This document shows positions 1 to 4,500 of a DNA stretch of 4,500 bases, piece by piece. Source of the stretch: a virus (lineage: Duplodnaviria > Heunggongvirae > Uroviricota > Caudoviricetes); IMG/VR virus record IMGVR_UViG_2529293213_000032, positions 1 through 4,500 of that record; one strand, 5' to 3'. The first letter of the stretch is position 1; the number at the start of each line of letters is the position of its first letter. Under the pieces are notes generated by a model, which was given only the letters and a program-made list of their open reading frames with translations, did not search any database and was not told where the DNA came from. Both the position numbers and the translations under genes were made by a program.

Positions 1-760
1 GTTTTTCCGGGTCATAGTTTGACGGTACCTGGATGATGCGACCGCGGATATGGTAGTTCACCGTCATCTGCTGACCGCCAAACTGCTCCGCATCCACCTG
101 CAGCCCCACAATCGCCGTGTTCGGGTAGCACTGTTTCACATCGATGATTTCGGTGTATGACGACCAGAGCGTCTTATTCTGCAGCTGGTCCGTGGTGCTG
201 TCCGCCGTCTCCCTGACCATCCGGATGTTAAAGGGGCGGGGAGGCAGATTCTCCAGAATCACCGACGCCAGGTACTGTGAGGTGGTCTTGCCGTTAATGG
301 TGACATCCTTTTCCGTCACCCAGTTACCGTTACGCTGCAACTGAATCAGCAGTCGGACAGAAGAGTGATTACGGTCGCCCTTTGAGGTGGTCTCCAACAG
401 TGACTGCACCCCGAAGGTGACCCGCAGGCGGTCAATGTTCGCGGACGTAATGGTGCGCGTCACCGGTTTTGCCTTCGTCACTTCCACGCCCAGTCCGGTT
501 TCAGCTCCGGAGGACTCAAAGCCTTCCGGTGGTGTCTGCTCCTGCTCCCCGGCACGCCAGACCGCGGTCACACCGTGTATCACGGGATTGCCGTCCGTGT
601 CCGTCAGTGGGGTTTTGTTCACCAGAATACTCTGCAGTCCCTTCACCGGACCTTCTATCGGTCCCTCACCAATCGCATCAATCACACTCATCATCTGCGT
701 GGATTTGAGATTATCCTTCGCCTCACGAGGCGTGTGTGCCTTACCGCCACCTTTTCCCAT
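1..760 (-). CDS. J: Tail tip / host specificity protein gpJ, N-terminal 253 codons (partial; 3' end lies beyond the window start)
   Basis: Manual reverse-complement translation from ATG at 760..758 is open to position 1 and reads MGKGGGKAHTPREAKDNLKSTQMMSVIDAIGEGPIEGPVKGLQSILVNKTPLTDTDGN...NIRMVRETADSTTDQLQNKTLWSSYTEIIDVKQCYPNTAIVGLQVDAEQFGGQQMTVNYHIRGRIIQVPSNYDPEK. This closely matches the lambda gpJ N-terminus as I remember it (MGKGSSKGHTPREAKDNLKSTQLLSVIDAISEGPIEGPV...). RBS GGGGAAGG lies 4 nt upstream (766-773 region). Absent from the supplied ORF track, presumably because there is no in-window stop. Confidence 0.9.
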   Translation of the reverse strand, partial: MGKGGGKAHTPREAKDNLKSTQMMSVIDAIGEGPIEGPVKGLQSILVNKTPLTDTDGNPVIHGVTAVWRAGEQEQTPPEGFESSGAETGLGVEVTKAKPVTRTITSANIDRLRVTFGVQSLLETTSKGDRNHSSVRLLIQLQRNGNWVTEKDVTINGKTTSQYLASVILENLPPRPFNIRMVRETADSTTDQLQNKTLWSSYTEIIDVKQCYPNTAIVGLQVDAEQFGGQQMTVNYHIRGRIIQVPSNYDPEK

Positions 761-1102: not shown

Positions 1103-1783
1103 TTATCCCTGTCGCCCGACAACCACGACCGTTCCGCCCCCGCCTTCATCACGGGTGCTGATGTCCTGGGATATACGGCGGGAGCCAACCAGCATTTCCC
1201 CGTAAGGCACCGGCATCGGGTTCCCCTGGGCAATCATGTTATCCAGCGAGGAAAAGTACGTGTTCTGTCTGCCGTTATCCGTTGCGCGGTAATCCGGTGT
1301 TTTTGCCTTCGGGGCCAGCATCTGGGCCACACCGCCCAGAATCATGCTGGCTCCAAGTGAAAACAGCATCGTGGTGGCAGAAAAACCACCGGCTGCCAGG
1401 GCTGAACCCCATAACGCCATTGATGCCCCGGCAGTGAAGAAAGAGCCCACGATGGCTGCCGCCCCCAGCACAATCTGCAGTCCACCCTTTCCGGCCCCGG
1501 CCAGTCGCGGCACAATATGGATGACCGTTCCCTCACCCAGCTGTTCGTGAAGACGGGCGTACACCGCCTCCGGTGCCGTGTCATAACCGGCAATACGTAT
1601 CTGGTACCAGCCTTCGTTCATCTGACGGCGAAAGCCCGGCACCTGTAACGACAGCGCCCGGATGGCTTCCGCTGCCGTGTTCACATACAGGCTGAGGCGG
1701 CGGCCAAATCGTTGTAAATCCCCGTGAAGGCAGATACGTGCCAGTGGCGGTGACGCCAGGCTGAATGCGTTCGTCGTTGCCAT
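1103..1783 (-). CDS. I: Tail tip assembly protein gpI homologue (226 aa)
   Basis: ORF-track protein MATTNAFSLASPPLARICLHGDLQRFGRRLSLYVNTAAEAIRAL... matches the lambda gpI N-terminus as remembered (ubiquitin-like domain, ...ARICLYGDLQRFGRR...). It has the central Gly/Ala-rich hydrophobic segment and the C-terminal NTYFSSLDNMIAQGN...YGEMLVGSR motif. Putative RBS GGAGAGG is upstream of ATG 1783. The 5' end overlaps the K 3' end by ~103 nt in another frame, as K and I overlap in lambda. Confidence 0.9.
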   Translation of the reverse strand: MATTNAFSLASPPLARICLHGDLQRFGRRLSLYVNTAAEAIRALSLQVPGFRRQMNEGWYQIRIAGYDTAPEAVYARLHEQLGEGTVIHIVPRLAGAGKGGLQIVLGAAAIVGSFFTAGASMALWGSALAAGGFSATTMLFSLGASMILGGVAQMLAPKAKTPDYRATDNGRQNTYFSSLDNMIAQGNPMPVPYGEMLVGSRRISQDISTRDEGGGGTVVVVGRQG

Positions 1784-2425
1784 TTTTCGGAATACCTCTC
1801 CCGTTTACTCAGTTGTTCAGGCAGATGGTGAAGCAGTTCACCGTTGCCGCAGTATATGGCGGCATGATTGGCCACCGATGCGCCAAAGCAGCACAGCAGG
1901 ATATCGCCAGGCTGTGCGGAAGGCAGGGAAATCCTAGTAAAAACCAGTACGCCTCCATATTGTCCAGGTACAGGTTCTGACCGTTGCGCCACCAGTCATC
2001 CTCACGCTCAAAATCCGGCATGTTATTCCCGCCAGATGGTATGCATCCCGGAACAGGGTGTAACAGTCCGTCACCCCGTGCTCAAAACGACGCCCGGTCA
2101 GGTGCGGCACACAGCGGAATTTGTGAATTTCCCCCCGGCAGACCAGCCACCAGGGCAGGGCACTCTTTATCTGCAGCCGCCGGTCCGCCTCGCTCAGCCA
2201 GGGCAGGCCACCGGGGTGGCTGTGGACCAGTGCCACAATCTCCCCCTGCATCTCTGCCCGCAGCCAGTCTTCCGGTGCAATACGAAAATACGCCTCCGGC
2301 TCTGCGGAAATATTCACACAAGGGATATACCACTCCCCCTCCGGCGTGCTTATCACGAAGCCGCACGACTCCGCAGGCGCACACCGCCGGGCATGCGCCA
2401 GAATCGCTGATTCAGTCTGTGTCAT
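1681..2425 (-). pseudogene. K: gpK-like tail tip assembly protein (JAMM/MPN domain plus NlpC/P60 peptidase domain) with the reading frame interrupted twice; either a pseudogene or a sequencing indel artefact
   Basis: Three consecutive minus-strand frames carry contiguous K-like sequence. Frame A 2425..2024: MTQTESAILAHARRCAPAESCGF...HSHPGGLPWLSEAD...GVTDCYTLFRDAYHLAGI (JAMM motif H-x-H-x7-S-x2-D at 2183-2224; NlpC/P60 catalytic Cys codon 2063-2065). Frame B 2021..1950: MPDFEREDDWWRNGQNLYLDNMEA. Frame C 1947..1681: LVFTRISLPSAQPGDILLCCFGASVANHAAIYCGNGELLHH...TGIYNDLAAASACM (NlpC/P60 His motif, His codon 1864-1866). The frame switches need a 1-nt deletion near 2022-2024 and another near 1948-1950. 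The out-of-frame continuations look like non-coding junk (Cys/Trp/Arg-rich). Start ATG 2425 is 10 nt after the L stop. Confidence 0.55.
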
Positions 2426-2435
2426 AAACCGGGAT

Positions 2436-3134
2436 TTACTGCGAAAGTTTATTAATGGAAAGGAAACCGCCAAAATTGCCGACATTCCTGCGCAGTTCAC
2501 ACCCGCGCATGCACTTGCTGCATCTGTCCTTACGGATATCCGGGGTGGGGTTGTCGAACTCATCCGCCACCGCAGGACCGTTATACCCGCATTCATCTCC
2601 CCGGTAATCCCACATACAGGTGTTCGCCAGCATGATGCGACCGGGAAACAGCGCCCCGTCCGTCTCGGTCGGTGTTGCCAGCACAAACGAGGCTGTCATG
2701 GCCGTCAGCTCTGACATCTGCTCCACCACCCAGCGGTCTCTCAGCTCCTGCTCCGGGTCCGCTTCCGGATTGCCCGCCACAAAATTCACCGCATCCAGAA
2801 AACGGGCATACACCCGGCGGCGGACCACCGTGGCACCCACCAGGCTCTGCAAATCCTCCGCCATCCCGGTGACAAGACCGAACAGATTGGACACCGTCAG
2901 CGACGGGCGGGCACTGCTGCCCTTCCCGTTCATCTCAAAGCCACTGCCGTCAATCGGGTATACCTGATATTGCCGCCCCTGCCAGGTGACCGCCTCCCCT
3001 TTTTCATTCAGCTCATTACAGAAAAAATACCGCTCACCGCCCTGCACCGTCAGGTCGATTTCCCAGAGCACCACCCGCGGTGACTGCTCTGACTTAACCG
3101 ACTCGTTCAGGCTTTCTTCATGAATATTCTGCAT
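2436..3134 (-). CDS. L: Tail tip protein gpL homologue (232 aa) with C-terminal four-Cys Fe-S cluster motif
   Basis: Translation from ATG 3134..3132: MQNIHEESLNESVKSEQSPRVVLWEIDLTVQGGERYFFCNE...GNFGGFLSINKLSQ, matching lambda gpL as remembered (MQDIRQETLNECTRAEQSASVVLWEIDLT...). The C-terminal cysteines (DEC...DRC..SKC..RGC) fit the reported gpL iron-sulfur cluster ligands. The ORF-track start at 3161 is 9 codons upstream and lies inside M; the ATG at 3134 shares one nucleotide with the M stop (TGATG), consistent with translational coupling. Confidence 0.9.
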   Translation of the reverse strand: MQNIHEESLNESVKSEQSPRVVLWEIDLTVQGGERYFFCNELNEKGEAVTWQGRQYQVYPIDGSGFEMNGKGSSARPSLTVSNLFGLVTGMAEDLQSLVGATVVRRRVYARFLDAVNFVAGNPEADPEQELRDRWVVEQMSELTAMTASFVLATPTETDGALFPGRIMLANTCMWDYRGDECGYNGPAVADEFDNPTPDIRKDRCSKCMRGCELRRNVGNFGGFLSINKLSQ

Positions 3135-3430
3135 CAGTTCACCACCTGCTCTATCGTGCAACTGAAATCACTGTACCGGGCATTATCCGTGACACTCCAC
3201 TCACGGCACACAACCCTCACCGTCCGGTTATGTTTCGGCGGTCGCCACAAAAAGGCACGGTAACCACCATGCCAGGATAAAAATTCATCCAGCCAGCGCC
3301 GGGTTGACTCATCCGTCACCCGGAACACCGCCTGAAACGTCTTCAGTTGAGGATTCAGCCCTGTGGGCGCGCTGTTCATAACCGTCACCAAACCGCACCT
3401 CACCACCGACGGCTTCTCACTCACCTGCAT
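3134..3430 (-). CDS. M: Minor tail protein gpM homologue (98 aa as called; start uncertain)
   Basis: MQVSEKPSVVRCGLVTVMNSAPTGLNPQLKTFQAVF...FLWRPPKHNRTVRVVCREWSV...FSCTIEQVVN aligns with residues ~12-109 of lambda gpM as remembered (C-terminal EQVVN conserved). In-frame stops TAG (3452-3454) and TGA (3467-3469) upstream preclude a lambda-length N-terminus. An alternative GTG start at 3424 has better spacing to the AAGGG RBS-like sequence. Confidence 0.85.
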   Translation of the reverse strand: MQVSEKPSVVRCGLVTVMNSAPTGLNPQLKTFQAVFRVTDESTRRWLDEFLSWHGGYRAFLWRPPKHNRTVRVVCREWSVTDNARYSDFSCTIEQVVN

Positions 3431-3531
3431 CCCTTCACGCGGGACCAGATGCTAGCGTTTTTTATCTCAGCCACTCAGCATTCCTCCGTCACGTCGCATG
3501 GACAGCATCACCGCCTGCACCCGCTGGTCAA

Positions 3532-4500
3532 TCAGCTGCACAGACTGCCTGCCGCCTCCGGCCCTATCTGTCCGTTAGCCCCGTCATTCTGAATGGCAAT
3601 GTGGTAGACCGGGGAATACACCAGACCAGCACTGCCGTTCATACTGCCCACGGCGCGTACGCCCAGCGAGCCATCCGCCGCCCGGGTCAGGGGCATAATA
3701 GCTTCAGGTCCGGCTTCCCCCATCAGCCCGGCCCCTTTTGCAAACGCAAAGTACGTGGGCGTGTCCACAATGCTGTTGCTGTACGCGCTCAGGTTTGCCG
3801 AGGTATACACGCCGCCTTTTGCATTGGCCACCGCTCCGCCCAGCCAGTCACCAATGCTGCCGAGAAATCCTCCCGCACCGGACATACCGTTTGCCGCCGT
3901 CTTAATTCCGTTGACAATCGCGGCATTCATAAGAACTTTTGATATTTCCTGCAGCACTGATGAGGCCCAGCTGCGCCATTCCACTTTATTTCCGTTCAGC
4001 ATCTCCGTGATGTTATTCACCATCCCTGAGATACCCTCCGTCGCCAGCTGTGCTGCCTGTGAGGCGTAATCGGACGCATTATCCACCCAGTTACTGAATC
4101 CCTCCTGCAGCCCTTTCTGCCAGTCCGCACGCTGCACATCCGATTCGGCATAAAAGACTGCCTGGTCCTTAAGGCGTTCGCTCAGATACTGCGCGTTCTG
4201 TGCCAGCGCCTGTCTGTAAAAATCCTCACTGATATCCCCGGTCTGATACTGAGACTGAAGGTCCGCATCCTTCTGGCGGAAGCTGTCGCGGATCTGCTGC
4301 AACTCCCGCATGCGTTCTCTGGCTCGTTCTCCCTGCCCGTATCCCAGCAGTTCGGCTTCATTTGATGCACGCGCAGCCACATTATCATTCTTCAGGGTCT
4401 CTTCCCGGGATCGCAACTGTTCCCGGATTTTTTGCTGGTCAATCAGGGCCGCGTTACGCAGCAGTTCCTGCTTCTGCATCTCCGTCAGGGTTTTCAGTTC
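3532..4500 (-). CDS. H: Tail tape measure protein gpH, C-terminal ~322 codons (partial; 5' end lies beyond the window end)
   Basis: The frame is open from 4500 (ELKTLTEMQKQELLRNAALIDQQKIREQ...) to the TGA at 3532-3534. The coiled-coil-like charged N-terminal part and the Gly/Ala-rich C-terminal part (GMSGAGGFLGSIGDWLGGAVANAKGGVYTSANLSAYSNSIVDTPTYFAFAKGAGLMGEAGPEAIMPLTRAADGSLGV...) are typical of lambda-like tape measure proteins, and the gene sits immediately upstream of M-L-K-I-J. The 3' end is uncertain (see findings). Confidence 0.85.
   Translation of the reverse strand, partial: ELKTLTEMQKQELLRNAALIDQQKIREQLRSREETLKNDNVAARASNEAELLGYGQGERARERMRELQQIRDSFRQKDADLQSQYQTGDISEDFYRQALAQNAQYLSERLKDQAVFYAESDVQRADWQKGLQEGFSNWVDNASDYASQAAQLATEGISGMVNNITEMLNGNKVEWRSWASSVLQEISKVLMNAAIVNGIKTAANGMSGAGGFLGSIGDWLGGAVANAKGGVYTSANLSAYSNSIVDTPTYFAFAKGAGLMGEAGPEAIMPLTRAADGSLGVRAVGSMNGSAGLVYSPVYHIAIQNDGANGQIGPEAAGSLCS

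Follow-up and report, generated by a model that had tools for sequence, protein, structure and literature searches.

K proteins are required in tail-tip assembly. The member closest to the gene described here is gpK of phage lambda (TAPK; "C40 family peptidase" at NCBI), which has an N-terminal JAB/MPN domain with the HxHx7Sx2D motif and a C-terminal NlpC/P60 domain with its Cys and His, features that the present gene shares; the TAPK name reportedly comes from Iyer, Burroughs and Aravind in 2006. TAPK combines JAB with NlpC/P60 and stands beside the ubiquitin-like TAPI (gpI) (PMC1779556). A study of lambda virions did not detect gpK, and its authors proposed a non-structural role (PMC10721106).

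Here, we analysed a stretch of 4,500 nt of prophage DNA (the window) in which K is broken into pieces lying in different frames. The gene belongs to the lambda gpK/TAPK family and is unremarkable within it; the split does not make it a new variant. Comparison with intact copies leads us to infer that the breaks are very probably sequencing or consensus errors in what is probably a collapsed repeat contig.

The window and its tail module

The entire window corresponds to AMTP01000066.1 of GCA_000302715.1, a draft assembly of about 2012 from E. coli FRIK920. This strain is an O157:H7 isolate of lineage II (PMC1890555). AMTP01000066.1 is a stand-alone short contig with both ends within prophage genes, starting inside H and ending inside J. 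The distal part of a lambdoid tail module runs along its minus strand in the order H-M-L-K-I-J, with K in the gpK/TAPK position between L and I. The neighbouring genes belong to the Pfam families Tape_meas_lam_C, Phage_min_tail, Phage_tail_L, Lambda_tail_I and FNIII-A_GpJ, and an Rfam scan of the whole window returned no RNA family at the gathering score. The genes around K are as follows.

3532..4500, minus strand: H, tape-measure gene, 3' part, ending ...EAAGSLCS*; Pfam Tape_meas_lam_C
3134..3474, minus strand: M, natively 113 aa with a GTG start at 3472-3474, 5' end broken by five 1-nt indels according to alignments; Pfam Phage_min_tail
2436..3134, minus strand: L, intact, 232 aa; Pfam Phage_tail_L; no indels against relatives
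1103..1783, minus strand: I, intact, 226-aa ORF; DNA 100% identical in O157 genomes
1..760, minus strand: J, 5' part, MGKGGGKAHTPREAK..., running off the contig end; Pfam PF24801 FNIII-A_GpJ

The longest ORF of I (226 aa) begins with the ATG at 1783, so that its first 103 nt (1681-1783) coincide with the 3' end of K, which is read in another frame. RefSeq relatives have a 193-aa I with a later start located at the K stop. Phage WGPS2, in its GenBank-derived record, has the long form. I and J are usually adjacent in lambda-type modules. Between the I stop and the J start of the window lies a low-GC (41-44%) gap of ~345 nt (761-1102), which is 100% conserved across O157 prophages and carries no annotation in RefSeq relatives. 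On the plus strand the gap contains promoter-like hexamers and a terminator-like hairpin (1073-1089), and a 77-aa ORF (741-974) was noted on the minus strand.

The K region is highly repeated, with 9-13 copies per O157:H7 genome among the genomes listed and 13,270 places across 4,085 complete genomes. The contig has traits expected of a collapsed repeat or low-quality consensus, being short and ending inside a multi-copy repeat. The sequencing platform and assembler of the FRIK920 assembly were not found in the literature under AMTP00000000, AMTP01 or GCA_000302715. The announcement of a sister batch, from whose list FRIK920 is absent, gives Illumina alone or Illumina with 454, assembled with Velvet or Celera (PMC3593324).

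Pieces and lesions of gene K

The K gene, with the peptidase domains JAB and NlpC/P60, occupies 2425-1681 on the minus strand and cannot be read through in any one frame. The original prediction described a gpK homologue with these two domains, split across three frames by two 1-nt indels. The homology was borne out by the Pfam domains and by near-identity to intact K after repair, and the frame coordinates, peptides and domain assignments by translations and Pfam. The split is also real in the deposited sequence, but the count was wrong: three lesions separate four pieces, in the frame order A, B, A, C.

2024..2425, minus strand: K segment 1, frame A, residues 1-134, ending ...DAYHLAGI (translation)
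2021..2031, minus strand: lesion 1, 1-nt deficit, window GGCGGGAATAACA-TGCC (alignments to intact copies)
1950..2021, minus strand: K segment 2, frame B, 24 codons, MPDFEREDDWWRNGQNLYLDNMEA; the same as intact K at residues 137-160
1949, minus strand: lesion 2, extra T, GCG[T]ACTGG, outside a homopolymer run (alignments to intact copies)
1937..1948, minus strand: K segment 3, frame A again, four codons, TGFY; matches ...EATGFYRISLP... of intact K
1936, minus strand: lesion 3, extra T, TTTAC[T]AGG (alignments to intact copies)
1681..1935, minus strand: K segment 4, frame C, 84 codons and stop, RISLPSAQPGD...NHAAIYCGNGELLHH...ACM* (translation)

Segment 1 contains the whole JAB/MPN domain with the JAMM motif HSHPGGLPWLSEAD; Pfam places Prok-JAB (PF14464) there at residues 3-105 (E = 1.6e-15; score 57 bits, cut-off 25). 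NlpC/P60 also begins in this segment, which includes the catalytic Cys of that domain in GVTDCY. The 3' half of NlpC/P60, corresponding to PF00877 profile positions 46-105, is found in segment 4 with the His motif NHAAIYCGNGELLHH. Lesion 3 creates the in-frame TAG at 1934-1936 that ends segment 3. As had been proposed for the breaks then recognised, the Cys (GVTDCY) and His (NHAAIY) of NlpC/P60 flank all three lesions; in the window as given, these two residues are therefore not on one polypeptide and the gene is divided among four frame segments.

We aligned the window to the intact copies of phage Stx2a_WGPS2, FRIK2455, FORC_044, E2863 and contig ACBHAB010000087. At lesion 1 the intact alleles have GGCGGGGATAACGCTGCC or GGCGGGAATTGATATGCC, and which base is missing is ambiguous, since the window there combines characters of the two allele types. 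For sites 2 and 3, intact alleles have GCG-ACTGG...TTTAC-AGG. Both junctions had earlier been taken for single-base losses, to be repaired as ATAAACATG and GCGTTACTG. The second junction proved to consist of an inserted T at 1949 plus an inserted T at 1936, and the two repairs match no intact allele, site 1 reading GGGGATAACGCTGCC or GGGAATTGATATGCC. In net length, K of the window exceeds intact K by 1 nt (801 vs 800 nt).

Four adjacent pieces that jointly encode a complete K might suggest programmed ribosomal frameshifting or another recoding event yielding the full-length protein, and this arrangement is the one point in its favour. Such a route would need three events of mixed direction (-1, +1, +1) within 90 nt. 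Site 1 (G GGA ATA) lacks a slippery heptamer of the form X XXY YYZ, and TAC TAG at site 3 provides no +1 re-pairing option. The frame change is not conserved among homologues either: K coverage was at least 80% in 1,721 of 1,762 phage records, where the listed matches are single pieces, the intact reference copies that were fetched have one 744-nt ORF, and the split arrangement was found nowhere else among complete genomes and IMG/VR. We therefore rejected programmed frameshifting, whose probability we regard as negligible, in agreement with the earlier view, according to which none is known for K.

Repaired K and its family

Reversal of the three lesions gave a 744-nt ORF encoding 247 aa, of which 244/247 are identical to WP_000194720.1, the intact K of FORC_044. 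With ITL at residues 134-136, repaired K equals EPU9604950.1, an identical intact protein; the other site-1 repairs, ITM, IDM, TDM and INM, had no exact protein in the collection, in which only ITL was present. Both Pfam domains are complete in repaired K, with PF00877 at residues 111-224 covering profile positions 1-105 of 105, and the protein covers PHROG 30, "minor tail protein", end to end (E = 1e-158). The expectation that the frame B and last-frame segments are homologous to K was likewise confirmed, by the identity of residues 137-160 and by the NLPC_P60 3' half, respectively. The gene has the JAB/MPN (JAMM) domain of gpK/TAPK (PF14464) and, after repair, high identity to intact annotated K. 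Most likely, the underlying gene or genes in FRIK920 encode intact 247-aa K proteins. The substitutions that separate K alleles are almost all synonymous, which implies that the underlying alleles or genes are under selection. The 103-aa C-terminal ORF (GTG start) gave no exact match in a look-up, since another fragment had been called by the depositor.

Further indels in H and M

All other tail genes in the window had been considered intact. We found six further 1-nt indels (-T 3543, +A 3463, +A 3453, -G 3400, -C 3370 and -C 3368), which shorten H and disrupt M at its 5' end. The missing T at 3543 (TT to T) cuts H short, with loss of the last 24 codons; the native H end is ...EAAGSLVQLIDQRVQAVMLSMRRDGGMLSG*, with the native stop at 3467-3469. 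The annotated part of M is the 84-aa fragment EKH06273.1 only. In the H/M stretch the six indels are the sole differences from FORC_044 and FRIK2455, without a substitution, and the M region, apart from its indels, shows 0 substitutions against more than 1,000 genomes. No indels relative to the reference copies were present in 1-1935 or 3544-4500. The six H/M indels, which had been missed, are among the strongest arguments for error.

Private differences and the allele patchwork

Relative to the five reference alleles, the differences private to the window in 1900-3650 are nine indels and at most one substitution, located at site 1; every other substitution in this interval occurs in some real allele among the five. 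Six of the nine indels fall within 176 nt (3368-3543) of otherwise identical sequence. In E. coli mutation-accumulation work, substitutions are about ten times as frequent as indels. A decaying gene should show substitutions at least as commonly as indels, and the window shows the opposite; judged from the sequence, the nine-indel pattern does not correspond to a natural spectrum of mutations.

Paralogous alleles are pieced together in the window as a patchwork. The FRIK944 copy at 3.16 Mb has 0 substitutions over 300-1934 and 2217-2675 and differs in 193-278 and 1983-2216; the FRIK944 copy at 5.75 Mb is a near-perfect match in exactly the latter two intervals, and 2660-3650 is matched by a FORC_044-type copy. 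No single real copy matches the patchwork: sub-blocks reach 100%, whereas for the whole window no copy in any complete genome exceeds 98.4%. Lesion 1 is located where the best-matching allele switches from type 1 to type 2. The patchwork may have originated from real inter-prophage recombination or from assembly chimerism. An intact mosaic K with an allele order similar to that of the window is present in another assembly, and the mosaic alone is therefore no proof of chimerism. We also observed that substitutions against the best-matching copy are confined to four tight blocks, 193-278, 1983-2216, 2676-3018 and 4207-4449.

One could envisage a real mosaic prophage allele with junction indels produced by illegitimate recombination between paralogous prophages. 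The patchwork itself, the location of lesion 1 at an allele switch and the comparable mosaic in another assembly are compatible with it. Nevertheless, homologous exchange at ~95% identity makes no single-base indels, eight of the nine lesions (2, 3 and the six in H/M) lie in allele-identical stretches away from the junctions, and the comparable mosaic has an intact K. We consider this origin very unlikely.

Errors of sequencing or consensus remain our preferred explanation. Most likely, the contig is a low-quality consensus, probably built from several copies, of a prophage segment that is repeated. Reads from several near-identical prophage copies (~10 per O157 genome) would have been merged into one consensus. 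The observed product is an allele patchwork with nine one-base indels, which we take for miscalls; they lie between 1936 and 3543, with three in K and six at the H-M junction. At the positions of the H/M indels the three close reference alleles do not differ from one another, and the FRIK944 5.75-Mb paralogue, the one divergent paralogue examined, is too divergent at H/M to co-assemble. Mixing of copies therefore fails for the six H/M indels, and a plain low-quality consensus must be assumed there. Mixing with this same paralogue had been considered as their source and was discarded, as the two sequences are ~60-70% identical by eye and the indel positions were not predicted.

Distribution of the lesions

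No 28-mer spanning lesion 2 or lesion 3 was shared by any of 5,426 complete E. coli genomes. For lesion 1, the best match in the same genomes was 95.5%, and 12 of the 12 records listed were 1 nt longer; the best matches of the H/M stretch in complete E. coli genomes were 97.7-98.1%. The three K-lesion patterns had 0 exact matches in IMG/VR, and the lesion 2 pattern had 0 matches in GTDB representative genomes. Directly past lesion 3, many O157 genomes have intact copies that match positions 1000-1934 at 100.0% identity. The idea that independent isolates might carry the same lesions thus found no support in the complete genomes.

The protein look-up covered a collection of about 15 billion proteins. 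The deposited fragments EKH06271.1 (163-aa K), EKH06270.1 (49 aa, out of frame) and EKH06273.1 (84-aa M) were each on one contig, the single exact match of EKH06271.1 being AMTP01000066.1, and the intact 113-aa M was on at least 1,000 contigs. EKH06271.1 and EKH06270.1 contain out-of-frame sequence made by the lesions. EKH06273.1 starts at an internal ATG and consists of intact M sequence only; that it is unique therefore counts for less. Across the genomes, IMG/VR, GTDB (lesion 2 only) and the proteins, the lesions were neither inherited nor independently observed.

The original prediction had left a choice between very recent decay of a prophage and indel errors in the assembly. The evidence strongly favours errors. 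Genuine very recent pseudogenisation would mean that one FRIK920 prophage has dead K, H and M and makes no tails. O157:H7 prophages are often defective, with frameshifted H, K, I and J annotated in complete genomes, so that decay of such prophages does take place; K fragments of other assemblies are frameshifted at nearby but different positions; and in five of the nine indels a homopolymer changes length, as can also happen by natural slippage. Decay is difficult to reconcile with a 1.6-kb interval in which nine indels, six of them in 176 nt, are private to the window and at most one substitution is. None of the lesions occurs in the 5,426 complete genomes, among them the O157:H7 FRIK strains that match best, the fragment proteins are on no other contig of the collection, and the window is a stand-alone 4.5-kb repeat contig with flanks 100% identical to intact copies. 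We therefore regard decay as unlikely. Were the lesions real, they would describe one tail-less member of the ~10 lambdoid prophages in one O157:H7 strain, which is ordinary for the lineage.

Frameshifted K fragments in other assemblies

Different 1-nt deletions near lesion 1 occur elsewhere: in CTGGCGGGG in TW09109, in GGAATTGAT in two 2.1-kb contigs, and in CCGGATTTT in FRIK944 and a 5.5-Mb contig. The K fragments frameshifted within ~25 nt of lesion 1 come from the TW09109 draft, the complete FRIK944 genome and several contigs of 1-2 kb. Another assembly contributed a K fragment with a T-run deletion at TTTTT near lesion 3.

Codons 130-138 of K (~25 nt, window ~2010-2035) could accordingly be imagined as a real, recurrent hotspot of single-base deletion in O157 prophages. 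JAB would then be repeatedly uncoupled from NlpC/P60, and lesion 1 of FRIK920 would be a real instance. We give this idea very little credence. The clustering probably reflects a selection effect plus assembly errors, since only frameshifts near this place give fragments that fall in the 90% cluster of the query, and several of the assemblies with frameshifted K fragments are error-prone.

In several complete O157 genomes of the long-read era, H, K, I or J is flagged "frameshifted" by PGAP, and at 5.75 Mb in FRIK944 four consecutive genes bear this flag. Indel problems or real decay in the repeated tail module are therefore widespread in public assemblies.

Comparison with known systems

The lambda G/GT programmed -1 frameshift belongs to the same tail gene cluster of lambdoid phages. 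It concerns another gene pair, upstream of H, and differs from the K breaks in being a single -1 event on a conserved slippery sequence and in being conserved across phages.

Another parallel is offered by collapsed-repeat contigs and consensus indel errors in drafts of multi-prophage O157:H7 genomes, with which the window shares a short repeat-bounded contig, an allele patchwork, private indels without private substitutions, and fragmentary gene calls deposited as "tail assembly protein". The sister draft of TW09109, from the batch of PMC3593324, has a frameshifted K fragment too. We caution that short repeat contigs in drafts of multi-prophage genomes yield pseudo-pseudogenes that are deposited as proteins. 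Such fragments can be mistaken for prophage decay, for domain-split K variants or for recoding sites, and we suggest that EKH06270.1, EKH06271.1 and EKH06273.1 be treated as artefactual fragments.

With respect to lambda gpK itself, the repaired protein is 98-99% identical to the intact K of O157 Stx and other lambdoid prophages, and the only difference of the gene in the window lies in three single-base lesions that are most likely not real.
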